NCBI GenBank assembly: GCA_051532055.1
Contig: JAOPTX010000023.1
Coordinates: forward strand, 64,001-128,000
Origin: Fibrobacterales bacterium
GTDB lineage: Bacteria > Fibrobacterota > Fibrobacteria > Fibrobacterales > JAOPTW01
DNA: 64,000 nucleotides
Direction of reading: 5' to 3'
Below, one piece after another: positions 41,686 through 61,220 of the stretch. The first letter of the stretch is position 1. Each line of letters begins with the position of its first letter. The position numbers were made by a program, and so were the translations under genes. The notes beneath the pieces are model-generated. The model did no database searches, had not been told where the DNA came from, and was given only the letters and a program-made list of their open reading frames with translations.

Positions 41686-43920
41686 CTATCGTTTTAGCTG
41701 TATGAGTTCTTCCATCATTTTATCTGACACTGTAATTATTCTTGAGTTTGCCTGAAAACCACGCTGAGTTGTAATCATCGACGTAAATTCAGCTGCCAAA
41801 TCAACATTTGATCCTTCAAGAGCACCGGGACGTAGTTTTGATTTTGACTGCAGGCCTGGTATACCCGAAATTGGATCACCCGAGTTTGAACTCACTGTAA
41901 AGACGGAGTCACTCAACTTTAGAAGTCCACCTGGATTGGTAAATTCTGTCACCATTACCCGTGCAAGAGCCCGTGATGTACCGTTAGTAAAACTTCCCGA
42001 TACCATTCCATATTCATCAATACTGATATCAGTCAATGACCCAGTACCATATCCATTTTGACCAACAGCAGACGCTGATGTTTGAGCTTCAAACTGAGTC
42101 AACCCTTGAAAATCACCTGGTCCACCCATATCTAGGTTTACCGTCATCTGATTCGAACCATTATTAGGGTCCATTATGAGCCCCGAGCTACTATCAGTAA
42201 AGATAAATGCACCAACTGACCCATCTTGAGCAAAGGAGAGTGTACCTGAATCACCGCCAAGGATTCGTTCATCACCAGAGGCCGTTACTTTCCAAAGCCA
42301 TTCACCAGGCACACCTGTATGAGTGAACGTAGTAGTCAATACATGCTCCGCACCACTTTCATCATATACTGAGATCGACGTATCGAATACTCCTGTATCT
42401 CGTGCCGCCTGAAACTCTTCTGACGCCATATTCGCATTAAAAAGTTTTGGTGTAGGGTTCTGATTATTTGAATTATTTGCGGTAACATTAATATTTTCTA
42501 AGGCAAAGTCAGCTCCCTTCACCCCACGTATTACAATGGTCCCATCATTAATCTGATCGTTACTATCTGCACCATTAATGGTTACTGTTTGATTTTCAGC
42601 CACAGTACCATCAGTAAACGGGAGCTTTAATCCATCTTTAATACTATCCATCAAGTTTTGTATGGTCGTGGTTGCCGCCGAATAGTTCAGCATTGATGGC
42701 GTAGAAGACTCTCCACCAACGGTACCATTTACACTTATGGTATCACCTGTTTCTAACCCAAGAGCATCACCATGAGTATCATAGAGTTGTGACATAAGGT
42801 CAGTCGCTTCAGCAGGGTATCTAAATGAATCAGAAAGCCCTGTATTACCTACAGCAATAGTCGCTGGGAAATTAAATGCCTTACGGATCATTGAGTCCGA
42901 TATTGGCCGGTCTGAACTTACCTGAAATCCAACCAATGCCTGAACACCAGCGGTATTATCAACGGTAACTGAACCTCGATTGACACTACCAGGTCCATCA
43001 TCAATACCCGCTTGAGTGCCCGGATAACCTTGACCATTAAACCAGTTATTTATTGCGGTGAGCATTTCATCTACTGTACCTGCTGTGGCATTGGTACCAG
43101 TAATAATTGCACCCGCTGTTGTTGACGGGTCGACAATTGTTATTTCAAGAGGAGTCAGAGGGAGGCCAGCAGCATCAACTGCTTCATAGGTTAATACATC
43201 ACCTGGTTCAATTCCTAAATCTCTTCCTTTACTATCATAAAGTGCGGTTAACCAATCAGATGAAACCTTTGGCGGCACCAAGGCACCAGTACCTGCAGGG
43301 TCTGCAAAACCACCCGCAGTACTTGGTTGTGCAAATTGTAAAAACCTATTCGTATACACAACAGACCCTTTTGCGCCAGAGTCAGAGTTTAGATTCCTCG
43401 AATACTTTACAGTATCAGTCTCTTTTGCAGGAGCCTGTTCATTAAAAGGAATAGTGATATTCCCTTCTACAGAACCTGAAGGGAATTCTCCTACTTCATT
43501 TGCCATAACACCCTGGAGTACGTATCCATTTGTAGGGAGCACCATCTTACCATCAGAGTCTAACTGAAAAGAACCATTACGAGTAAAAAAGTTTCCTTCC
43601 CCATTACTGACAGCAAAATACCCTTTCCCTTCAATAGCAAGGTCAGTAATTTGACCTGTTGAAAGCATATTACCTTGACTCAACTTAGTATCAATTGACC
43701 CTACAGAGGTACCAAGTCCTACTTGCATTGGATTCGTCCCACCACCGTTTCCTGGGGGACGTGACGAGCCTTCAAGGAGCTGTGCAAATGATTCTTCAAA
43801 TGTCACTCGTGTTGATTTATATCCTACCGTATTAACATTTGCAATGTTATTACCGATAACGTCCAACTGCACCTGATGGGTGTGCAGACCTGATATTCCG
43901 GAATATAATGATCTTAACAT
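41686..43920 (-). CDS. flgE: Flagellar hook protein FlgE (long form, 744 aa)
   Basis: GNNIANVNTVGYK, DLAIEG, TRNGSF, LEGSNVDL, QRGFQANSR motifs. Confidence 0.96.
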   Translation of the reverse strand: MLRSLYSGISGLHTHQVQLDVIGNNIANVNTVGYKSTRVTFEESFAQLLEGSSRPPGNGGGTNPMQVGLGTSVGSIDTKLSQGNMLSTGQITDLAIEGKGYFAVSNGEGNFFTRNGSFQLDSDGKMVLPTNGYVLQGVMANEVGEFPSGSVEGNITIPFNEQAPAKETDTVKYSRNLNSDSGAKGSVVYTNRFLQFAQPSTAGGFADPAGTGALVPPKVSSDWLTALYDSKGRDLGIEPGDVLTYEAVDAAGLPLTPLEITIVDPSTTAGAIITGTNATAGTVDEMLTAINNWFNGQGYPGTQAGIDDGPGSVNRGSVTVDNTAGVQALVGFQVSSDRPISDSMIRKAFNFPATIAVGNTGLSDSFRYPAEATDLMSQLYDTHGDALGLETGDTISVNGTVGGESSTPSMLNYSAATTTIQNLMDSIKDGLKLPFTDGTVAENQTVTINGADSNDQINDGTIVIRGVKGADFALENINVTANNSNNQNPTPKLFNANMASEEFQAARDTGVFDTSISVYDESGAEHVLTTTFTHTGVPGEWLWKVTASGDERILGGDSGTLSFAQDGSVGAFIFTDSSSGLIMDPNNGSNQMTVNLDMGGPGDFQGLTQFEAQTSASAVGQNGYGTGSLTDISIDEYGMVSGSFTNGTSRALARVMVTEFTNPGGLLKLSDSVFTVSSNSGDPISGIPGLQSKSKLRPGALEGSNVDLAAEFTSMITTQRGFQANSRIITVSDKMMEELIQLKR

Positions 43921-43934
43921 ATCTACTCCCTCCC

Positions 43935-44717
43935 TTAGTTTGTCACTTGTTTAATGTCTGAAAGTTTATAACTCTTTGAACCGAGCAGTATCTCTGCTCC
44001 ACCACTCGCATAATTAACACCGGTTACGGTCTCTTTGTTATACGCATACCCTGCATCTGCGGGGCCATTTTTAGATTTCTTAATTTCAAAGGTGTAGTTA
44101 CCCGTTTTTAATGGTTCCCCATTCGTATCAAGCTCTGGCCAAGGCACTTCCGCTTCACTCTCTGTATCAATTCTATCTATTTGAGTATAATAGACCTCGT
44201 TGCCTACTTCATCAAGTATAGAGAGGAATGATTCACCGGGAGAGTTAAGATGTACTTTTAACGGATCATTTTTACCGTTATAATAATCTTTATCAATTTC
44301 AACTACTGCCTTTTTGCCAAGCATAGAAGTGGCCGACGCGTTGGCTACCGATTGGGTTGCTTGATTTTGTGTCCCTACAAATTCTCCCAAGGCATTTGCC
44401 ATATCAGTAATTGAACTTTCTGAATTTTGGCTCGACTCTAACTGAGAGAACTGTGCGAGCTGTGCTACAAATTCTTCATTTTCTTGCGGAGAAAGAGGAT
44501 CCTGATATTTTAACTGTGTCGTAAGAAGAGTCAAAAAATCCATTTTACCAAGTTTTCCATCATCTTTACTAAAGAGACTCGCATCACCCTCATCTTCTAT
44601 AGTAGAACCTTCATCTTTATTATACGACACCTTACGCACACCACTGCCTTCAACCCCATTAATGTTGTTGATCCATTCTTGCTGTGCTGCACTATTATCT
44701 ATTCCCGAAACCGCCAT
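43935..44717 (-). CDS. flgD: Flagellar hook cap protein FlgD
   Basis: FLTLLTTQLKYQDPLSP...AQLAQFSQLE motif. Confidence 0.97.
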   Translation of the reverse strand: MAVSGIDNSAAQQEWINNINGVEGSGVRKVSYNKDEGSTIEDEGDASLFSKDDGKLGKMDFLTLLTTQLKYQDPLSPQENEEFVAQLAQFSQLESSQNSESSITDMANALGEFVGTQNQATQSVANASATSMLGKKAVVEIDKDYYNGKNDPLKVHLNSPGESFLSILDEVGNEVYYTQIDRIDTESEAEVPWPELDTNGEPLKTGNYTFEIKKSKNGPADAGYAYNKETVTGVNYASGGAEILLGSKSYKLSDIKQVTN

Positions 44718-44734
44718 AGTATCTCCTCATTGGA

Positions 44735-46474
44735 CTACGCCAAATACTCCATAGTATTATATCCAAGGCGCCGACCAGTTTCTGCACCGTCTTTTTCAAC
44801 ATCTACTTCGAGAGTTACACTATTTTTAACCCTCTTATTACCTTTAAATCGATTCTGTTCTTCCTCTCGATCTTTTAAATTTGCAAACTCACTCTCTTTT
44901 CTCACTTCAACATCAACATCATCAATAGTGATTCCCTGAAGATTCAATGATTCTTTGAGTTGTCCCACACTTCCTTCTATTGTTTGACGCGCCCCTTCAG
45001 TTTCAACTTTTAAGCTGAGCTTCATTTTAGAATCTTCCATCTGTATATCAATATTAACACGACCTAAATGCTCTGGCTTTAGCTGCATACTCATCGAAGT
45101 TTTTCCGCTATCAATAAGGAGAGTTACATTCTTTACAACTTGTTTTACCACATGGGTTTGTTGCGCACCTCTCCCTTGAGCAACTTCTTTTGTTTTTTCA
45201 ACAATTATTTTTTCACCATTCACTTTCACTGTATGTTCAACATTTACAGATTCAGATGTTTTAAACTCACCACCTTTCACTTGCGTTTGTTGACCAACCC
45301 CTTGATTACCTTTATCAACTACCGTACTTTTTGGGGATTGTTTTTTTTGAGAATCCCCCTGACTAGAATTTTGCTGAAAGAATTCATTTTTTTGTTCTCC
45401 TGCTTGTTTCTCTTGAGTCCCCGTAATACCCTGTTGACGACCTGTATCTTGTTTTTCTGTTCCAGTAGTAGGGCGTTGATCTATTCCCTCTGTTTTAAGT
45501 GACCCTTGCCGCGTTTGCTGTTCAGTCTGCTTGGCTGGCTCTCTATGAAACATCTCTTTCAATTTATCCATAAGCGGAGATTTAGTATCTATTTTCTCAT
45601 CTTTCACCGGTGTCAAAAATGAATCATCTTTGAGAGAGCGAAGTTCTGCACGTTTATTATCAAAAAGTGCCACTTTCTTTGTATTAATCTCTAATTGTTC
45701 AATTGTAGTAGCTATTTTCTGAGTTACTTTTTTAGGAATTTCACCAAGGTATGAGACCTCTTTTTTACCACTAATGTCAAATGCCATCAAATTGCGCGGC
45801 GCGACTTCAAAAGGAATATCAAGTTCTGTTAAACTATGCAATAATTCATTTAACTGTACTGCATCTCCTGGGCTCTCTTTTGTAAGGGTTTGGAGCGCTT
45901 TTTTTAAATCGGTTAATTTCTCAGGTGTCAGTGCTTTAGGATCAACCGTCACACCAAAATCTTTTAGAAGTGAAACAACTTCTTTTTTGCCCTGCTGTAG
46001 CGCTTCTTTAATAGACCCAATTGCTTTTTCAACCTCTTTCAATCTCGTGTTTATTATAGTATTTTCTTCAGAAGGTTGTTCAACCTGCCCCTGATCAGTA
46101 GCATCACTGCCCCTTTCATCTTCTCTATCAGTAGATTTCTGAGCGTAGTCCACTTCATGACCTGTATTTTCATTATTATGTGAATCTGACTCAATTAAGT
46201 ATTCTCGATTCTCTTCTGCAGAGTATTTCGATGTACTCTCCTCCGGCATTGACTGTTTCTCTTGAGACTGTTGATACTCATCTGATTCATATACATTATA
46301 GAGTTCATTCTCAAATGAGTGCGATGGCTCTGGTGTTGAAAGAGTTTCAGGAACAAATTCTTTTTGCTGATCACCACTGGGCACTGAACCAGCACTAATC
46401 GCACTAATATCTGCACTCCCCATTGACTGTCGGGGCATTATTCGCTCACTAAAGAGTTGTGTTAATTTTATCAT
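44735..46474 (-). CDS. fliK: Hook-length control protein FliK
   Basis: Long low-complexity N-terminus; C-terminal LKPEHLGRV T3S4 domain; directly before flgD. Confidence 0.9.
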   Translation of the reverse strand: MIKLTQLFSERIMPRQSMGSADISAISAGSVPSGDQQKEFVPETLSTPEPSHSFENELYNVYESDEYQQSQEKQSMPEESTSKYSAEENREYLIESDSHNNENTGHEVDYAQKSTDREDERGSDATDQGQVEQPSEENTIINTRLKEVEKAIGSIKEALQQGKKEVVSLLKDFGVTVDPKALTPEKLTDLKKALQTLTKESPGDAVQLNELLHSLTELDIPFEVAPRNLMAFDISGKKEVSYLGEIPKKVTQKIATTIEQLEINTKKVALFDNKRAELRSLKDDSFLTPVKDEKIDTKSPLMDKLKEMFHREPAKQTEQQTRQGSLKTEGIDQRPTTGTEKQDTGRQQGITGTQEKQAGEQKNEFFQQNSSQGDSQKKQSPKSTVVDKGNQGVGQQTQVKGGEFKTSESVNVEHTVKVNGEKIIVEKTKEVAQGRGAQQTHVVKQVVKNVTLLIDSGKTSMSMQLKPEHLGRVNIDIQMEDSKMKLSLKVETEGARQTIEGSVGQLKESLNLQGITIDDVDVEVRKESEFANLKDREEEQNRFKGNKRVKNSVTLEVDVEKDGAETGRRLGYNTMEYLA

Positions 46475-46478
46475 ATCA

Positions 46479-47081
46479 CTACCTCAAAGTACCGTCGTTT
46501 TTCCAACCAAGCTTTTTAGTAATGACCGCTGCTCGCTCATTACTCATAGCCCCAAGTGCGGCCATCAACTTAGCTTGTGATCGCACTTCTGGAATGCGTT
46601 TCACAATACCGACAATATCATCATCTTTCAAACTGAGTAAAATAGGTGCTGCTTCTGTTGGCTTCATATTGCCATATACCTGTGCAAGTGCGTCAAGCCG
46701 TTCATCACTCAACTCTTTTGACTCGCCAACGAGTTTTTCAATTCTATCTCTATGCTGTCCAATTTCTTTTTTTAAAACATCGTTTTCCATTTTAATATTC
46801 TCAAGACGTTCAATCTCTTCTTGGAGTCGAGTTTCTCTTAACTCAAGGTTTTTATCACGGAGCTTAATTGCTTCAAAAAGTTTACTCTGTTCAGAGTCAC
46901 TGGAATCTTGTTTCGGGTGATAGGTTTCAAGAAATTGCACGAGACCATCTTTGCCAGCACTACCCTCACCCATCTCGATATGAATAGTACCGGTAGCTAG
47001 GAGAACCACTACAAATACCACAGGAAATAGAAAGAGTGACGCTATTCCCGCTGTAATGACATCTTTTAACCGTACCTTCAT
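46479..47081 (-). CDS. MotE/FlbB/YlxF-like flagellar protein (TM, coiled coil, MgtE_N-like domain)
   Basis: LAQVYGNMKPTEAAPIL...AKLMAAL..ERAA motif; located before fliK. Confidence 0.8.
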   Translation of the reverse strand: MKVRLKDVITAGIASLFLFPVVFVVVLLATGTIHIEMGEGSAGKDGLVQFLETYHPKQDSSDSEQSKLFEAIKLRDKNLELRETRLQEEIERLENIKMENDVLKKEIGQHRDRIEKLVGESKELSDERLDALAQVYGNMKPTEAAPILLSLKDDDIVGIVKRIPEVRSQAKLMAALGAMSNERAAVITKKLGWKNDGTLR

Positions 47082-47118
47082 CTTCAAACCATTTTATAGT
47101 TTATCTACTGAAGTATAA

Positions 47119-47281: not shown

Positions 47282-48772
47282 CTAGAAAATATCATATTGA
47301 ATAGATACAGAGTAATCTATGGAGAGGCCATTTGGATTTGATTCATGATAACTCCAATATTCATTATTAGAATCCCCAAATCCATTTCCATATGCTTCAC
47401 TCACAATCGACCGTTGACTTGGTCCATACTGAGCCTTAATACCCCAATATTTTGCTTCTACCCGCTCCATTGAGTGGTATACGCCACATTCTGCCAATAA
47501 TTTCAGTTTAGTTGAAAAATACCACACATATTGCATTGACGCCCCAACTGTGAGCATATAGTTCTCATATTTAACCGTAGTATCATAATGCTTTGTTTGT
47601 AAATAAACAGGTATAAACCAATAATTTCCACCCACTGTTAAGGAAACCTCGGTTCTACTCGAAGGATAGTAACTTAATGCAGTCTGATGTCCAATCGCAC
47701 TGAGCCAACCCGTTGCATTCGGTGCTATTTCATGCTGTACACTAACACGATCACCGCTAAAAGCTCCTGATTCAAGATAAATTTTATTCTCTATATGCCA
47801 GTTTAAACTGAGAGCTTCTGTGAAATGATGTTCTATAACTCCAAATGTTCTCGAATATTTGAATTCATTCTCACTTTTACCCGAAGCATTAACTTCATAG
47901 GTATGTCGTGTTCCCTCAACTCTAAAAGCAAGACCAACCCGCAAACCACTCTGTCGCTCTGGATGAGTGTCCATTAAAAAGTCATTGATAATAGTGAAAT
48001 AATCAAGAGCTGCCTCGACCACCAATCCATACTCCTTAAAAAAGGCATCAATAGCCTCTAATTGTAACGTTCGATGCTCCCGTTCATCCCATACCCGTAT
48101 CTTTTCTGTCTCTTGTAATAGGTGAGCAATACTCTCAATATAGTCTGAACGGACATCATCTATTATGCCTTTTTTAAAAAGTGCTTCCACTATATAGTAG
48201 GCTGTTCGAGCATAGGTAACACTTTGAAAACGACCAAAGCCAGCAGAGACCCCTCCTTTCCAATAGTGATGCCTCCCCTCAATATTCGACTCATATGCAG
48301 AAGTATCTACACCGTGCTCTTCAATTTCATTATAATCTATTGAATAATGCGTTCCACCATCAGCGCCAAGATACCAATCATCGAGACCAAAATAATGTGT
48401 ATAGCTAAAGGAACCATAAGGGGCTACCATTGCAGTGGTACTCACTATTTCACTATTAAGACTATCACTCCAATCAGTAATTGACCTATTCACATAGTTA
48501 CCGTGCAAACCAACGACTCCACTCCATTCATTCCTATCAGAGAATTCTCTGCGAGCATAAATGAGTGTTGCACTCCCGAGTAATGCAGTACCTTCATCAG
48601 GAAGAGGAGCAAATATGTTCTCTTGTTTCCCATGAATTCCAGTGTAATCACCGCTAATCATTGGCGTAATGTAGAGTGATGACTTACTATAATTTGTAGA
48701 GCGAAACTCATTTAAGTCATAAGAAAAGACAGATGTAATAGAGAGTAAAAACAGCGATAGCAGAATTCTCAT
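47282..48772 (-). CDS. Hypothetical outer-membrane beta-barrel protein
   Basis: Signal peptide, Tyr/Gly-rich amphipathic strands, C-terminal beta-signal YSVSIQYDIF. Confidence 0.65.
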   Translation of the reverse strand: MRILLSLFLLSITSVFSYDLNEFRSTNYSKSSLYITPMISGDYTGIHGKQENIFAPLPDEGTALLGSATLIYARREFSDRNEWSGVVGLHGNYVNRSITDWSDSLNSEIVSTTAMVAPYGSFSYTHYFGLDDWYLGADGGTHYSIDYNEIEEHGVDTSAYESNIEGRHHYWKGGVSAGFGRFQSVTYARTAYYIVEALFKKGIIDDVRSDYIESIAHLLQETEKIRVWDEREHRTLQLEAIDAFFKEYGLVVEAALDYFTIINDFLMDTHPERQSGLRVGLAFRVEGTRHTYEVNASGKSENEFKYSRTFGVIEHHFTEALSLNWHIENKIYLESGAFSGDRVSVQHEIAPNATGWLSAIGHQTALSYYPSSRTEVSLTVGGNYWFIPVYLQTKHYDTTVKYENYMLTVGASMQYVWYFSTKLKLLAECGVYHSMERVEAKYWGIKAQYGPSQRSIVSEAYGNGFGDSNNEYWSYHESNPNGLSIDYSVSIQYDIF

Positions 48773-49017: not shown

Positions 49018-49296
49018 TTACAGCAGTTTAATTATTTTCTCGGCAATATCATCTACCATTTGATCATTCAATGTATACTCTCCTGCATTAACTCGGCTTT
49101 TAATATTTTCAAGCTTTTGGAAACGCTCTTTTTCAATATGAGAGTCGTATTTCTGAGAATCCTTCAGCTTCTCAGCAGCTGCTTTGGAAAACTCGTAGGT
49201 ATCTTTAACCTCGGCAGTTTTCCCTTCATCAATTTTTTTCTTTGCTCCAGGGCTTCGTATGTATTCAGCAACCCTTGTAATTATCTCTGTTTTCAT
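49018..49296 (-). CDS. flgM: Anti-sigma28 factor FlgM
   Basis: ATG at 49296 after AGGAGG; DTYEFS and KLENIKSRVNAGEY...IAEKI motifs. Confidence 0.88.
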   Translation of the reverse strand: MKTEIITRVAEYIRSPGAKKKIDEGKTAEVKDTYEFSKAAAEKLKDSQKYDSHIEKERFQKLENIKSRVNAGEYTLNDQMVDDIAEKIIKLL

Positions 49297-49525: not shown

Positions 49526-50254
49526 TCAAGATCCCTTATGGGATTTTGATGTTCCCGCCTGAGGACCAAAACGCTTCACAAGGCCATTATAATTGGAGAG
49601 TAACCTATTGTAGTAACGAATGGGAAGCTTTTTAAGGCTTTTTGTACGAATTGCCTTATTAAGAGTACCAGGGCCAACATTATAAGCCATAATGCCATAC
49701 CGTAGGCTTTTATAGCGAAGAATCATTTTTATAAGATACGTCGCCCCAAAGAGAATATTTATCTTTGGATTCATCAAATCCGCACGGGTCTGTAGACCCA
49801 CGCCAAGATGTTTTGACATGGACTGAGCTGTCCCCATTTTAATCTGCATGAGCCCCAAGGCCCCACTTAACTTTCCACTTCGATACTTACCCATTGCATC
49901 AGGATCCCCCTGACTCTCAACCGTAACAAGTGCCAAAATAAGAAGGGGGTCAAAAGAATAAGAACGAGAAATCTTCCAAAGCTCCTCGGTAATTTCGATA
50001 AGCTCTGCATTAGTGAGTTGCCCATACGCACTAAATTGAGTGGCCTCCAAAATTCGCACATACGCATAGGTCGAAGTTATCACCTTTTCAGTATGAAAAT
50101 TTTCACTCTCCAACTCTTTAATTTGAGCCTGAAGACTCTCTGCTGTCCGTGAATTCTTCACCCAAATCAGAGCAATCGCAATCAAAACCAGAGTAATAGA
50201 AGTACCCAACACTATAAGTGATATAACGTTTAATCTGATACTCGAACGGATCAC
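49526..50254 (-). CDS. Membrane-anchored lytic transglycosylase (SLT domain)
   Basis: N-terminal TM helix; VTVES (catalytic Glu), GALGLMQI, AYNVG motifs. Confidence 0.92.
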   Translation of the reverse strand: MIRSSIRLNVISLIVLGTSITLVLIAIALIWVKNSRTAESLQAQIKELESENFHTEKVITSTYAYVRILEATQFSAYGQLTNAELIEITEELWKISRSYSFDPLLILALVTVESQGDPDAMGKYRSGKLSGALGLMQIKMGTAQSMSKHLGVGLQTRADLMNPKINILFGATYLIKMILRYKSLRYGIMAYNVGPGTLNKAIRTKSLKKLPIRYYNRLLSNYNGLVKRFGPQAGTSKSHKGS

Positions 50255-50967
50255 TCGTTCTCCAACTCTTTTTTCTTTTTCCTTTTGTTTCGGCGCTTTT
50301 CAAGTACCTCTAAATACTGCACCCAATCAGAGACAAATGTGTAATCTGCATTCTCTAACGAATCGTTGACCAGCCCTAAATCTTTCAAAGGAGCCAAACG
50401 TAATTGCAGAGAAGTGATGTCTTTAAGCATCTTATCTTTTTGTACTTCTAACTGATGAATCAATTTGGTTTGTTCTGCAATACCCTCTTCTTGAAAACGA
50501 ATAATAGAGATCAAGGTAAGGAGCCACCCTCCTAGAAGAACTAACAAAATTGCAGCAACACCAGGCGAAAGACGCATTCCTGTTTTCTTGGAATAGATAA
50601 TCCCTGTTTTCTTAAGGTTTTTAACAAATCCAGAATTATGATACTCTTGTGCTGTCTGATAAATAGAAAAGAGATTGCTCCACTTAGCAAAATAGAGCAT
50701 TTTCTTTTCGGGACTCATAAGAATAATGAGATTTCCTCCACGTCCTTTTAAATTATTAAGAATTTCTAGAAGCATGGGCGCCAATTTTTGAGTACGCACT
50801 TCACAATGGTGCATGTCTAAAATAAAAAGCTTGTGCCCATCAATAATAAGAGACTCAAGTTTCTCTTGAACACTTTGCACCTGTTCGTCAAAGAAAAGCC
50901 CCTCCAATACAACAAGGATCTCATTATTTAAAGTCTCTATAGATATATCGAGCTGTTTTGACTTCAT
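50251..50967 (-). CDS. STAS-like domain, single TM helix and coiled-coil protein
   Basis: STAS-like pattern VVLEG...LFILDM...RGGNLII...FSIYQT, then a hydrophobic helix and heptad repeats. Confidence 0.7.
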   Translation of the reverse strand: MKSKQLDISIETLNNEILVVLEGLFFDEQVQSVQEKLESLIIDGHKLFILDMHHCEVRTQKLAPMLLEILNNLKGRGGNLIILMSPEKKMLYFAKWSNLFSIYQTAQEYHNSGFVKNLKKTGIIYSKKTGMRLSPGVAAILLVLLGGWLLTLISIIRFQEEGIAEQTKLIHQLEVQKDKMLKDITSLQLRLAPLKDLGLVNDSLENADYTFVSDWVQYLEVLEKRRNKRKKKKELENE

Positions 50968-52937
50968 CTCAATGATTTCCTTGTCTTTTTAATTTTAACT
51001 GTTGAGAGAAATTGTTCACTCTCTTGGCCTTTCATAGAAACAGGCCAGAGCGCGACGCAAGTATACCCTTGGAAGATCGAATCTCCTCCATCGTTAACCC
51101 GAATACTCATCTTCTTTACAATTATGGTACACTCTTTTACAAAACTCCATTCAAAAAGCACGCCGCATTTTTTGTCGAGTACTTCAAATTTGGTCACACT
51201 ATTTTTTTCAAAACCATCTGACATTTCAAAGCCTAGATTTATTATACGACCGTTAACACGAATACGCATTTTCTCTTCATTTGTAGTACTCAGAGTAACA
51301 TTGAATTCATTAGCAAAAAAACCTGAAAATTGATAAAACGTATTGTTCGTCACTTGATAATTGACGTTAATCTCAGAAGCTTTCTCTTTTACCGATATCA
51401 CTTTCTCTATCTTACACTCATGTTTAGTACCATCGAGTGTAAACTTTTGTCTCCCACTCATAAGGAGCTTCGTCGAAGATTTTTGTTTCTTTAATGTAAA
51501 ATCATAAGGAGACGTCAATTGCCCTTGGGTTCCCTCTAGATATCTTGTCACCCCTTCAAAAGAGAACGAATCCATGGGGATCATCCAGTCCCTGAAGCCT
51601 GATACAGGATCGACACTAAATCGTAGTTCTTCTTCATCAACGACCTTAGACTCACGATATCCATTGATAATATTAATAGGGCGAGGACGATACTCGAGAG
51701 ACCTCAAGCGGCCTCCCTTTAAAGGTTCTAATACAAAGCCCATAGTTCCATTAGTACATACAACCTGCTTAGATCCATTATTTAACAGATCAGTTTCTTC
51801 AATTTTAATACCCGTTCCAGGATGTATTTCTCGCAATCGCTCCTCAACCTGCAATAAAATTTCATAACACCGCACCCGGTCTTCAATGAAAGTAATACCG
51901 CCTGTTTGTTTTGAGTTCCGGTAATAAAAAACCCCTTGAACCGGTAACATCATCTCTTCAAGGGCATCAATCTGGGACTGTTGTTCAAGACGTGAAATCC
52001 TTTTATGTAAATGCATCATTCGCTTATGCAGGTAATTCGCCTCAGGCTGTAACACCAATAATTCACGACATGAGGTTAGGTGATTCTCTAACCCTAGGGA
52101 ACGCCCTGCAGTTTCAGGTATCGATATTCCGCCCTTCGAATAACCCGAGTCAATAAGCTGTGCAAGAGTCCCAACTTCGACAGGAAGCTCTGCCTCTGAT
52201 ATTTTTTCAAACATTGTCTTGAGATGATCAAGCCAATCATATTCATACTCACCCCGTGCAAGACCAAAAAATGGGAGATCAACAAGTACAAGTTTATCCT
52301 CAGCATCCTCTAAGTCGGGCAAATTCATTTCACAGAGTTTTGATAATTTTTCAACCATACCTTCAATATTACCATCTGCAAAGAGCTGCATAAATCCATC
52401 CAGCGCAGGCATTACTTTAACTAAACGACCTCTATCTTCAACACAAAAATAACCCGCGCGATCACTATAACGCCAAAGTGATCCTTTCAATTGATAATCT
52501 TTTAAGAGGGTATATTCAAAATGATTTTCCGCCAAGAGCTCAACCATTGAGTTTTCCCAAATATATGCAGAAGGAAAAAAACCTCGGGGCCGAACATGCA
52601 GATTGTTTTCAATAAGGTCCATCAACTTTTTAATTTGAAGTTGCTGAAGTGACCGTGGTAAAAATGGAAATACCGGATCATAATACCCACCACCAAGCCA
52701 CTCGATAGTACCACTTTGTGATTCAACAAGTAATCGTTTAAAAAGATCAGACTTTTTTTGAATAAGGCCATTCAAAAAGGACCCACAACTATAGAGGGTT
52801 ATACCCTTCATGCTATTTGAATCGAGTACTTTATAGAGCTGTTCTAAAAAAAGTTGGCCATACTCTACCAACTGCTTCTCTTGAAGCAATGGCATATCAT
52901 GTATATGCAATACTATTGCAAGTTTAACTTTTCTCAT
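50964..52937 (-). CDS. GH57 4-alpha-glucanotransferase-like protein, probably catalytically inactive
   Basis: IEWLGGGYYDP, FEYTLL, PEANYLHKRM and PLKGGRL motifs give the full GH57 plus C-terminal beta-sandwich architecture. The nucleophile Glu position reads Ala. Confidence 0.8.
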   Translation of the reverse strand: MRKVKLAIVLHIHDMPLLQEKQLVEYGQLFLEQLYKVLDSNSMKGITLYSCGSFLNGLIQKKSDLFKRLLVESQSGTIEWLGGGYYDPVFPFLPRSLQQLQIKKLMDLIENNLHVRPRGFFPSAYIWENSMVELLAENHFEYTLLKDYQLKGSLWRYSDRAGYFCVEDRGRLVKVMPALDGFMQLFADGNIEGMVEKLSKLCEMNLPDLEDAEDKLVLVDLPFFGLARGEYEYDWLDHLKTMFEKISEAELPVEVGTLAQLIDSGYSKGGISIPETAGRSLGLENHLTSCRELLVLQPEANYLHKRMMHLHKRISRLEQQSQIDALEEMMLPVQGVFYYRNSKQTGGITFIEDRVRCYEILLQVEERLREIHPGTGIKIEETDLLNNGSKQVVCTNGTMGFVLEPLKGGRLRSLEYRPRPINIINGYRESKVVDEEELRFSVDPVSGFRDWMIPMDSFSFEGVTRYLEGTQGQLTSPYDFTLKKQKSSTKLLMSGRQKFTLDGTKHECKIEKVISVKEKASEINVNYQVTNNTFYQFSGFFANEFNVTLSTTNEEKMRIRVNGRIINLGFEMSDGFEKNSVTKFEVLDKKCGVLFEWSFVKECTIIVKKMSIRVNDGGDSIFQGYTCVALWPVSMKGQESEQFLSTVKIKKTRKSLR

Positions 52938-58726: not shown

Positions 58727-59596
58727 TTATTGTTTTTTTGTTACAGGGAAAAACTGGACATTCGTTTGAAATACCTGATCAGCATTATTCTCATATTCTG
58801 AGGCGATCTTTACCATTTTTTTTTGAAATTCAATTATCAATTTATCCATTGCATTCCTCCCCTCTTCATTAGTCGAAAAAGTTGCCCCTACAATATTTCT
58901 TTCAGATTTAGTGAATCTCTCTATTGCCCCCCCAGCCAACTCTATTGTTCTCCGCTGAAAATTACGAATGGCAAGAGACCGCGGTAAATACGGCGGCGTT
59001 TCTATACAGCTATTGATTTGTTTATACACTACTCCGGCTGAGCCCATAATCTTCTCTACCATTCCAAGTTTTATAAGAAGGTTTACGGCATCCTTAACTT
59101 TCTTAGCAGGCACAGGGGGAATAATCTGCTGACCAATGAGTTTAAAGTCATCATGAAACTGATTGAGGTGAATAAGTTCTCGAATGACCGACACGTACCA
59201 ATTTTCTAAAAACTCTGTGTAGTTTTTTTCTAGTGTATAAATTTCTTTTGCAGGCTTAAGATAGAGAAGTTGATCACGATAATATTGTTTTTGATTATCC
59301 CCCTCTGCTGATTGATAATTTATTAATGCCTCTAAATAGTGCGTCTCCCTTTTCGAGAGCCTCATCGCCAAAGCCATCTTTAACAATGAATCCACAGATA
59401 ATTGTCTTCGACCAGAAATGACATTTGCCATGTATGACCTCGACTTAAATCCTGCTTTATTTGCAAAGTATTGATGTGAAAATGCCGCGCTCTTCACTCG
59501 TTCAAGCTCAAACCAATCTCTCAAAAAGTCGACATAATTCCAATAATCAAAAATTGAAATGCCTTTGTCATTCACGATCTTCTCTGAAACGCCCAT
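58727..59596 (-). CDS. TIGR02147-family putative HTH regulator
   Basis: IFDYWNYVDFLRD, FANKAGFKSRSY, WYVSVIRE and C-terminal VFQTNVQFFP, characteristic of the family. Confidence 0.85.
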   Translation of the reverse strand: MGVSEKIVNDKGISIFDYWNYVDFLRDWFELERVKSAAFSHQYFANKAGFKSRSYMANVISGRRQLSVDSLLKMALAMRLSKRETHYLEALINYQSAEGDNQKQYYRDQLLYLKPAKEIYTLEKNYTEFLENWYVSVIRELIHLNQFHDDFKLIGQQIIPPVPAKKVKDAVNLLIKLGMVEKIMGSAGVVYKQINSCIETPPYLPRSLAIRNFQRRTIELAGGAIERFTKSERNIVGATFSTNEEGRNAMDKLIIEFQKKMVKIASEYENNADQVFQTNVQFFPVTKKQ

Positions 59597-59729
59597 ATAT
59601 AAACCGTTGGTAAAAAATGTATTGTTACAATTTCCGTATCATTGTTAAAACAAATTTACATCATGGCACCGGTAATTCTTCAAACTAATTATATATTTAT
59701 TTACTGGACCCACAATTTTTTTACATACT

Positions 59730-61220
59730 ATGACTTTTATATTATTACTTATCGCACTACTTATCATTGGATGTGACTCAGCCTCTTCTGTCAACCAATC
59801 AACTGGAATTTTAATTACCGGAAACAATGCATCAATTTCTGCAGAGGTACTTGTTCAAGATGCAAGTAACACCCCACCAGACTCATCAATGTATCTTGTA
59901 CTTAAAAAATCTAATGCAGACGCGCTCGAAGAATCAATTTATTTAACAACTACAAATACTGCAGTATTTGATAGTCTTGAGCCCGGCTGGTATGACATCT
60001 CTGCCTATGCTGACAACGATACACTCATTGGTTCTCTGGACAGTATTCAAGCCCATACAGATTCGGTTGTATCAGTGCAGATCTCAGTCCAATACATTCA
60101 GAATATCGATATCAAAATTGAGGGAGACAACAACACAAATACTTTTATAAATGGTAATGGCAATACGGTATCCAACGGGGATAAAACTGAAAACCACTTC
60201 TATCACCAAGAACACAATTATGAAACAACCAACATTGTGGAAAAAGGGGCATACATTACAGTCACTCCACTTTCATCCCAAACAACTCATACCTCGTCAG
60301 TGACAAAAGTACTTATAGCTGTATCTTCGGAAATATCATCTTCAGTAGCCCCCCCCCTAAGCATTTCACTCCCTATAAGCTCGTCATCTCAACCTACTAT
60401 TGAACATTTATCTAGTACATCATCTACTTCAAGTAGCGTATTTTCTCTACCAAATGCACCAATTAGCTCAAGTATACTGAGCTCTTCTTCAATACTCTCC
60501 TCATCCATATCATCATCATCTTCATCTTACACCCCAACGCCCCTTTTGTCATCTTCTGTGCACCTTATTACCCCTCCTATACCAGAGACCAAACCTTCAA
60601 CCTTTGTAGATTATCGTGACACACAAGAGTATCAAAAAGTAACAATAGGTACTCAAATATGGATGGCAGAAAACCTCAATTACTCAGAGAGCTTCGTATT
60701 AGGCTACTGTAGCGGTGACTCCACCCACAGCGATTCAAAACACTGTGATACATTTGGTCGACTATACACATGGGAAGAAGCCATGAACGGCGAAAGCGAA
60801 TCTGTCACCACTCCAAGTGATATTCAAGGTATTTGCCCCAGTAATTGGCACCTACCGAGTCATGACGAATGGAAAGTCCTCATAGAATATGTAGATTCCA
60901 ATAATGGCGATGAACCATTAGGTCAAAGTTTGAAATCACAGAATTTATGGACTGAGGACGTCAATGGCGGCCCAGGCTCAGACACATTTGGCTTCAATGG
61001 ATTACCTGGTGGATTTGGGGGGAAAGATGGCAAGAACTATTATAATAGTCTCTATAATCATAGCATGCATTGGGCAGCCACCGAATACAGTTATTATCAG
61101 GCAATACGTATTGATCTCAAATATTTAAACAATATAGTCCTTATTGAAAAGAGTAATACAAGCTGGAGATCTTCTGTTCGGTGCATAGAAAACGAACCAA
61201 TAGATACAATCGAATTTTAG
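59730..61220 (+). CDS. Lipoprotein with a Ser-rich linker and C-terminal FISUMP (Fibrobacter succinogenes major paralogous) domain
   Basis: Lipobox IIGC; DYRDTQEYQKVTIGTQIWMAENLNY, GRLYTW, QGICPSNWHLPS, SVRC motifs. Confidence 0.9.
   Translation: MTFILLLIALLIIGCDSASSVNQSTGILITGNNASISAEVLVQDASNTPPDSSMYLVLKKSNADALEESIYLTTTNTAVFDSLEPGWYDISAYADNDTLIGSLDSIQAHTDSVVSVQISVQYIQNIDIKIEGDNNTNTFINGNGNTVSNGDKTENHFYHQEHNYETTNIVEKGAYITVTPLSSQTTHTSSVTKVLIAVSSEISSSVAPPLSISLPISSSSQPTIEHLSSTSSTSSSVFSLPNAPISSSILSSSSILSSSISSSSSSYTPTPLLSSSVHLITPPIPETKPSTFVDYRDTQEYQKVTIGTQIWMAENLNYSESFVLGYCSGDSTHSDSKHCDTFGRLYTWEEAMNGESESVTTPSDIQGICPSNWHLPSHDEWKVLIEYVDSNNGDEPLGQSLKSQNLWTEDVNGGPGSDTFGFNGLPGGFGGKDGKNYYNSLYNHSMHWAATEYSYYQAIRIDLKYLNNIVLIEKSNTSWRSSVRCIENEPIDTIEF

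Follow-up and report, generated by a model that had tools for sequence, protein, structure and literature searches.

Three adjacent genes on the minus strand of a 64,000-nucleotide stretch of a Fibrobacterales bacterium genome (assembly GCA_051532055.1, contig JAOPTX010000023.1, positions 64,001 to 128,000; this whole stretch is hereafter the window) encode, in the direction of transcription, a degenerate glucanotransferase-like protein of family GH57, a membrane protein with a STAS domain, and an SLT-family lytic transglycosylase. We conclude that this trio is a real, conserved and undescribed module, whose parts are known and whose composition is new. With slightly more confidence than doubt, we read the three genes as one inner-membrane module of the Fibrobacterota, in which the pseudoenzyme serves as a scaffold docked on a bitopic adaptor, and the adaptor places the SLT protein or gates its action. 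A preliminary description of the window had proposed a trans-envelope chain running from an alpha-glucan-binding pseudoenzyme through the STAS protein to peptidoglycan cleavage, possibly in flagellar assembly; the three-gene unit and, in a structure model, the GH57-STAS contact of that chain have stood, while its glucan binding is weakened and its flagellar link has fallen. Of the three outcomes that it had named as refuting (an active or decaying GH57 protein, a lack of synteny elsewhere, no interactions), none was obtained. The three open reading frames (ORFs), and the ATGA and GTGA overlaps that join them, were all recovered on the minus strand where it had placed them.

As previously described, the GH57 protein is full-length and cytoplasmic, in that it matches Pfam PF03065, PF09094 and PF09095 and shows no hydrophobic segment in a hydropathy plot. 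It is matched by the profile of the Thermococcus litoralis 4-alpha-glucanotransferase (E 1.2e-57), and its structure model (predicted local distance difference test score, pLDDT, 86.8), which matches the T. litoralis structure 1K1X at a TM-score of 0.77, keeps the seven-stranded barrel, the helical middle domain and the C-terminal sandwich of active GH57 4-alpha-glucanotransferases. The motifs HIHDMP, GFFPSAYIW and DLPFFG were confirmed. Within the second, codon GCA puts an Ala in the column of the Glu of WLTERVW in 1K1W, so that the reported replacement of the nucleophile holds (this Glu is E123, with D214 as acid/base, in the numbering of bioRxiv 10.1101/2023.08.25.554913). The third had been read as a ruined DGEKFG motif; it is present, in a collapsed loop, with the refinement that the acid/base Asp (D220) is still there.

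The loss of the nucleophile is shared by the family. Glu is absent from 72 of 74 orthologues versus kept in 21/21 intact enzymes, the column being occupied by Ser (n = 38) or Phe (n = 25) and by Glu in only two sequences, both from family f8. The DDGEKFG loop is collapsed in the orthologues, with Asp in the acid/base column of 25/74, and the pocket columns offer no conserved acidic residue as a substitute for the nucleophile; conservation of 85% or more is seen mostly at Gly, Pro and residues common to the intact fold. The sugar-binding residues have fared no better. The two His of conserved sequence region 1 (CSR-1) and the Trp of YWHG, present in 21/21 intact enzymes, are scattered in the 75 orthologues (first His 24/74, second His 10/74, Trp 0/75 when counted among the six commonest residues of the column), and Glu216 of the catalytic-site pocket is conserved in the 21 intact enzymes and not in the orthologues. 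Likewise, the second maltose site (His of LPHLR and Gln-Ser of SQSE, residues as named in bioRxiv 10.1101/2023.08.25.554913) is kept in 14-16 of the 21 intact enzymes and scattered in the 75 orthologues. Because the residues of both sites are scattered in this way, glucan binding is not supported at either of them. Of the proposal of an alpha-glucan-binding pseudoenzyme, descent from an alpha-glucan enzyme and retention of the fold stand, and neither known sugar site is conserved. The window protein itself retains both CSR-1 His and the acid/base Asp, and a remodelled glucan site is possible.

A tree of 84 sequences groups the orthologues in a single clade (support 0.997). This clade is separate from the intact f7 and f8 enzymes and lies close to degenerate spirochaete-type proteins, a closeness that may be due to long-branch attraction. 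Ratios of nonsynonymous to synonymous substitution (dN/dS) range from 0.013 to 0.219 for the three genes in 10 pairs: they are 0.056, 0.013 and 0.065, respectively, against a genome of the same genus, in which panC gives 0.12, and 0.02-0.22 in the nine other pairs. For the GH57 gene, values of 0.05-0.22 and the full length of the protein in the loci rule out decay. By these comparisons, the protein would be a GH57 duplicate that has lost its chemistry and yet is kept whole under purifying selection.

The second protein consists of a STAS domain (residues ~1-110), a basic juxtamembrane segment ending in TGxRLS, one transmembrane helix (~138-156), a coiled coil and a PLxxLG motif. No Pfam STAS match was obtained for the window protein, PF01740 is matched by 60/74 orthologues, and SpoIIAA/RsbV-type profiles match it at E 3e-9; its model resembles SpoIIAA/RsbV with TM-scores of 0.78-0.86 over the target. 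Hydropathy gives one hydrophobic segment in 105/105 alignment rows, and the monomer model has a long helix after the membrane segment, with residues 119-130 at low confidence and without a hairpin. The column of the SpoIIAA phospho-acceptor, Ser58, holds Gln60 in the window protein, Asp or Glu in 47/74 orthologues and Ser in 3/74, and the Gly that follows is found in 0/74; the domain is thus, as first described, STAS-like without the DSSG phospho-acceptor motif, and is followed by one transmembrane helix and a coiled coil. An Asp or Glu at this column may mimic a fixed phosphorylated state. Word-indexed protein searches gave only 3 and 10 relatives, numbers that understate the size of the family, and in the ESM Atlas the protein matches a Fibrobacterota cluster. 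An identity with DivIC (FtsB/FtsL) was rejected, as only 12/74 orthologues gave weak matches (best E 4.7e-4) and a separate DivIC gene scores above the cut-off on contig C38.

The third protein is matched by PF01464 (E 1.2e-21), as are 69/69 orthologues, which share the catalytic Glu within ES (69/69), GxMQ (68/69) and AYNxG (69/69), together with a family-specific GRYRSG..SG insert ahead of GLMQ. It has one hydrophobic segment, an N-terminal transmembrane helix by hydropathy. With Glu113, GxMQ and AYNxG in place, the earlier account of a transmembrane and coiled-coil-anchored SLT protein with its catalytic Glu is borne out, and the window protein is, by its motifs, apparently an intact lytic transglycosylase. 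Its membrane-proximal part aligns in register with that of the STAS protein: the profile-profile score of the two anchors is 55.1, versus at most 32.3 in 30 block shuffles and 19.8 for the reversed profile. The SLT-anchor profile ranks the STAS protein 2nd of the 9698 frames of the genome, and scores above 10 bits on 83/83 STAS orthologues versus 1/83 when reversed. In one locus (L041:6500-7230), the SLT gene is split by a frameshift in the assembly; the frame is intact in 4/4 public runs, each from a different study (one of them possibly the origin of the DNA at this locus), and we therefore rejected this broken gene as a sign of dispensability. A similar frameshift is seen in the assembly at L145.

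The trio is conserved across genomes and syntenic elsewhere. The STAS gene was found in 229/296 Fibrobacterota genomes, nearly always as a single match, and the closest named relatives are from Fibrobacterales. Scanning one genome per bacterial and archaeal species with motifs from the SLT alignment yielded 103 relatives; the 80 retained comprise 73 labelled Fibrobacterota, six with other labels on Fibrobacteraceae-like DNA, and one unrelated SLT. Among 95 de-duplicated loci, fetched through a STAS or an SLT match, (i) 75 hold the complete trio in order, (ii) 8 are cut by contig ends, (iii) 9 have the SLT gene alone (one of them the unrelated SLT), (iv) 1 has GH57 and STAS, and (v) 2 have STAS and SLT. 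With automatically picked start codons, the GH57 and STAS genes overlap in 63 of the 75 trio loci and the STAS and SLT genes in 51, the latter overlap being retained across both large classes; in genus g7, the GH57-STAS pair is adjacent in 11/11 loci. Contigs labelled archaeon, Bacteroidota, Actinomycetota or Bacillota (L072, L073, L079, L083, L084 and L085) carry trios so close to Fibrobacteraceae loci that we read them as mislabelled bins rather than as transfer.

The three genes are also missing together. Three profiles were run against 77 genomes, namely 57 of families f5-f8 and f19-f21 plus 20 others without a STAS match, and no full-length orthologue of any trio gene was found in 53/53 genomes of families f5, f6, f7, f14, f19, f20 and f21. 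The GH57 matches in f7 are intact 700-aa enzymes aligned over the barrel only, and SLT matches in trio-less families cover the catalytic domain at E 2e-21 or weaker, versus 1.6e-37 or better for orthologues. The f7 counts include a genome flagged as unpublished (G253), without which they comprise 31 instead of 32 genomes with the same outcome. All three genes are likewise lacking from four genomes of carrier families that are 93-98% complete (G009, G010, G013 and G066), and the mixed cases (G021, G041, G063, G087 and G279) are contig ends or incomplete bins. At L118, the GH57 gene and the N-terminal part of the STAS protein seem to be lost jointly; we set this case aside as a probable misassembly, a frameshifted GH57 gene lying on another contig.

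Modelling of the whole pseudoenzyme with STAS residues 1-134, from 74-row alignments, supported a contact between the two. The complex scored 0.72, 0.69 and 0.72, versus 0.00 for the best of three controls; the mark applied to these scores is reached by 116/157 solved complexes and 2/215 mismatched pairs, counts that are only approximate for our own alignments. The runs agree in at least 76% of contacts, with a partner pLDDT of at least 77. In the predicted complex, pseudoenzyme strand 378-383 pairs with STAS strand 7-11, flanked by pseudoenzyme residues 481-486 and STAS residues 39-45, and the interface includes conserved positions (STAS Asp7 in 71/74 and Glu11 in 59/74; a basic residue at pseudoenzyme position 484 in 68/74). 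None of the structure matches is titled as a GH57-STAS complex, and recall of a solved pair by the model is therefore unlikely. The coordinates of the genes and of the residues discussed are given in Table 1.

Table 1. Features of the three-gene module, with positions in the window
Feature	Positions	Strand	Basis
GH57 4-alpha-glucanotransferase-like pseudoenzyme, 657 aa, three domains, without hydrophobic segment	50964..52937	-	Pfam, structure model, hydropathy
Ala124 at catalytic nucleophile Glu position	52566..52568	-	Codon GCA; alignment to 1K1W
Asp220 at acid/base position, shortened loop, not conserved across family	52278..52280	-	Alignment, orthologue counts
Pseudoenzyme residues 373-383, first strand of C-terminal sandwich, modelled STAS docking strand	51789..51821	-	Complex model, conservation
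STAS-transmembrane-coiled-coil protein, 238 aa	50251..50967	-	Profiles, structure model, hydropathy
STAS strand 1, residues 7-13, modelled antiparallel to pseudoenzyme strand	50929..50949	-	Complex model, conservation
Gln60 at SpoIIAA Ser58 phospho-acceptor column	50788..50790	-	Profile alignment, orthologue counts
SLT-family lytic transglycosylase, transmembrane and coiled-coil anchored, 242 aa	49526..50254	-	Pfam PF01464, orthologue alignment
Catalytic Glu113 of SLT	49916..49918	-	Invariant in 69/69 orthologues

In the module that we favour, the pseudoenzyme would bind the cytoplasmic STAS domain by adding the first STAS strand to the edge of its C-terminal sandwich, at a predicted docking site away from the old active site, and would act as a protein scaffold or switch rather than as a maltodextrin receptor. 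The STAS domain would no longer take part in partner switching driven by phosphorylation. The coupling of the genes and the similarity of the anchors suggest that the STAS protein and the SLT protein pair in the membrane through their similar juxtamembrane, transmembrane and coiled-coil segments, and the adaptor would thereby hold the SLT domain at the peptidoglycan. The output is likely housekeeping wall remodelling in growth or shape control.

Several observations weigh against this interpretation. In genus g7 the SLT gene does not adjoin the GH57-STAS pair, 8 other loci have the SLT gene alone, and the GH57 gene of genome G088 lies on another contig, followed by a different gene. The reciprocal STAS-anchor profile ranks the SLT protein only 16th (7.7 bits) and exceeds 10 bits on just 18/91 SLT orthologues, and transmembrane and coiled-coil segments align partly through composition. 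The 25 best modelled contacts show no clear covariation between the two proteins (mean percentile 0.59, from about 48 effective sequences). Related genomes are not independent, so that the joint absences represent a handful of lineages rather than 57 events, and the existence of lineages without the trio means that it is not needed by the whole phylum.

Among the alternatives, we consider it unlikely, though worth keeping in view, that the same chain operates with a pseudoenzyme that has kept its binding of glycogen or maltodextrins and thereby informs the SLT protein of carbon reserves. Such a sensor would fit the ancestry in an alpha-glucan enzyme, the whole fold, and the CSR-1 His and acid/base Asp kept by the window protein. 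It would also fit the presence of glgC and glycogen phosphorylase in this genome, a pyruvate phosphate dikinase gene divergent upstream in many loci, a locus with glgX and a GH57 branching-type gene upstream of the trio, and the glycogen turnover and maltodextrin release of Fibrobacter succinogenes (PMC6204037). It is opposed by the scatter in the orthologues of pocket residues found in 21/21 intact enzymes, by the loss of the second-site residues (bioRxiv 10.1101/2023.08.25.554913), and by the related dead spirochaete-type enzymes, whose place in Rnf operons points to reuse as a scaffold. Family f14 has glgA in 8/8 genomes and the trio in none. Across the genomes, glycogen synthase shows no clear correspondence with the trio when scored with TIGR02095 at 1e-60, a criterion that overlooks synthases described in F. 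succinogenes and detects none in the present genome.

We give about as little credence to two units within one operon, in which the GH57-STAS pair is a membrane-tethered complex with another job, for example the tethering of a metabolic or signalling partner, and the SLT gene is only co-transcribed. The GH57-STAS pair is indeed the tighter one, being kept in 11/11 g7 loci without an SLT gene beside it, and in F. succinogenes S85 the GH57 gene is read far above the downstream genes (regularised log counts of 10.97 versus 5.8-7.6; PMC6204037), a difference that may stem, however, from gene length and upstream transcription. On the other hand, the SLT orthologue is missing from the same 53 genomes, STAS-SLT gene overlap persists in both large classes, and the two anchors are more alike than controls. 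Similarly doubtful is a phylum-wide trans-envelope switch, in which the dead glucanotransferase senses carbon status while docked on a STAS adaptor fixed in a state that mimics phosphorylation, and toggles the paired SLT protein; the carbon signal would come from an alpha-glucan bound at a remodelled site or from a partner protein, pyruvate phosphate dikinase for example.

Far less probable is a GH57 protein that remains active through a moved or substitute nucleophile, or that is a decaying relic. The f8 orthologues L136 and L137, the only ones to keep both the catalytic Glu and Asp, and the annotation of the S85 gene as a GH57 hydrolase (PMC6204037) speak for activity; there is, however, no conserved acidic substitute in the pocket columns, and dN/dS and length argue against a relic. 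Weakest of all is a flagellar accessory whose SLT protein opens the wall for assembly, for which speak flgM, 229 bases past the SLT stop as the preliminary description had noted, and fliK, flgD and flgE 3-8 kb further on, and which fails both ways: flagellin is found in 0/101, 0/19, 0/5 and 0/3 genomes of four genera (the first being the largest) that carry the STAS gene in 100, 19, 5 and 3 genomes, and it is present in families without the STAS gene (f14, 8/8; f5, 5/6; f7, 21/32; f19-21, 6/6). Adjacency to flgM is confined to the genus of the window, whose FlgM matches only the same-genus locus among L034-L153, and the SLT protein scores 68 bits against the flagellar lytic transglycosylase model NF047373 (cut-off 234). 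A Pfam scan of 50 downstream ORFs (49 of the 96 listed and 1 added) found no FlgM, weakly so because the known FlgM of L042 was also missed; the Pfam FlgM match of the window gene itself (E 6.8e-4) is below the cut-off.

The genes flanking the trio vary among lineages, being pyruvate phosphate dikinase, panC or a contig end upstream, and TolC-like, rsmE, histidine kinase or radical SAM genes downstream. A pyruvate phosphate dikinase gene is the divergent neighbour of the GH57 gene at L036, L039, L047, L140 and others from several families, possibly an ancestral link to gluconeogenesis. In many Fibrobacterales loci (e.g. L043:2245-4184), TolC-like and MlaC-like genes lie closely 3' of the SLT gene and may share its transcript; this pair was seen neither in the genus of the window nor in Chitinispirillaceae-labelled loci. 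A promoter and terminator scan stayed at chance level (10 found versus 12.1 expected), and no single transcript across the three genes was seen among the RNA contigs spanning them at L041. In the window, flgM (49018-49296) is followed 3' by a 496-aa ORF without a Pfam match (47282-48772), and a transmembrane MgtE_N-like ORF, fliK and hook genes occupy 41686-47087, outside the trio. At 58727-61220, a DUF4423 gene is divergent to a Fib_succ_major-domain gene, a pairing typical of Fibrobacterota. This genome has two other GH57 genes (L001:1450-3408 and L002:1270-3627), one among capsule-type genes and one with DUF3536, and in family f7 (L154:6755-15061 and L156:4281-12805) an intact 4-alpha-glucanotransferase (4AGT) gene lies inside an rpoN-hpf-hprK-(mlaD-like)-4AGT-HPr-ptsI run.

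A row of genes that may be the trio has already appeared in expression data. In S85, Fisuc_0668 (GH57), two hypothetical genes and a lytic transglycosylase gene stand in a row, all expressed, with the GH57 gene above the 90th percentile (PMC6204037) and the four genes in one expression cluster (its Table S2). Gene order and annotation suggest that this row is the trio. The four Fisuc tags occur in that paper only, in the literature searched, and neither the operon nor a GH57-STAS complex was described there, most subscription papers being outside the scope of the search. The earlier statement that no such system had been described thus holds for the operon and the complex, while the pseudoenzyme class was already catalogued. 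It is very likely that the highly expressed 'GH57 hydrolase' among the F. succinogenes carbohydrate-active enzymes (CAZymes) is not an enzyme, and CAZyme counts for this species would then include a likely non-enzyme. Through the predicted contact, the GH57 '4AGT-like' proteins, a catalogued orphan class, would gain a specific partner, an interface defined to the residue and a role open to testing. A conserved envelope module can also be named for the Fibrobacterota, a phylum with major degraders of cellulose and chitin whose cell-wall biology has received little description. If the chain is true, a lytic transglycosylase would be controlled from the cytoplasm in a new way, by a STAS domain to which a glycosidase-derived scaffold binds; if the carbon-reading switch is true, dead GH57 would be a reusable docking unit, serving Rnf in spirochaetes and wall remodelling in Fibrobacterota.

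Each component has a known counterpart. The 4AGT-like class, defined on 63 proteins (Martinovicova and Janecek 2018, PMC6037648), comprises three-domain GH57 proteins of ~620-650 aa that lack one or both catalytic residues, and the window pseudoenzyme, closest to 4-alpha-glucanotransferases and with a catalytic residue missing, fits it. The table of that paper lists ACX74280.1 of F. succinogenes S85 (618 aa, CSR-3 FNSSLV), whose length and CSR-3 are those of Fibrobacter loci L065, L075 and L092. In the passages of PMC6037648 that describe the class, neither a function nor a partner nor a genomic setting is given; spirochaetes supply most of the listed proteins, and the relatives of these follow rnf genes, not STAS or SLT genes. 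In four of four metagenome loci (L167-L170), a degenerate spirochaete-type 4AGT-like gene comes directly after rnf genes (RnfC, D, E/A); tp0147-tp0153 are one co-transcribed, non-canonical Rnf set (PMC4436053), and such loci offer another example of a dead GH57 protein associated with a membrane machine. With the T. litoralis enzyme (1K1W/1K1X/1K1Y), the pseudoenzyme shares the whole fold and differs in having lost the nucleophile, most pocket residues and the second maltose site. The trio STAS family shares the fold of SpoIIAA/RsbV, from which it differs in the loss of the phospho-Ser and the next Gly, in its fusion to a transmembrane helix and a coiled coil where those are soluble single domains, and in a partner modelled to bind strand 1.

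The closest parallel in layout is LmdC with bactofilin. LmdC is a bitopic wall hydrolase with a short cytoplasmic segment, a transmembrane helix and a periplasmic coiled coil, whose cytoplasmic hairpin binds bactofilin (PMC10945521); a coiled-coil partner has been proposed in a Baf-Api-LmdC complex (bioRxiv 10.64898/2026.10.09.758143), and placement by a cytoplasmic scaffold and a coiled-coil partner is thought likely there. The SLT-anchor profile ranks 3rd, of the 9698 frames, an M23 peptidase just upstream of the only bactofilin gene of this genome, and a profile of 20 LmdC-like anchors places the SLT protein 2nd and the STAS protein 354th. The alignment is limited to the coiled coil, with a score of 29.6 versus 25.3 shuffled; we take this weak resemblance as a common layout rather than as a demonstration of homology. 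The M23 and bactofilin genes stand between parB and ATP synthase genes on contig C105 (L174:1-1887 of G000), and an M23 gene adjoining bactofilin was recovered in 20/31 loci; bactofilin occurs in 258/296 genomes regardless of the trio, which makes co-occurrence uninformative. In the trio, a glycan-cutting SLT domain replaces M23, no bactofilin gene lies beside the three genes, and the part of the cytoplasmic partner falls to a STAS domain together with a dead GH57 protein. The kind of arrangement is nevertheless one already known, a bitopic adaptor and a scaffold that place a wall hydrolase.

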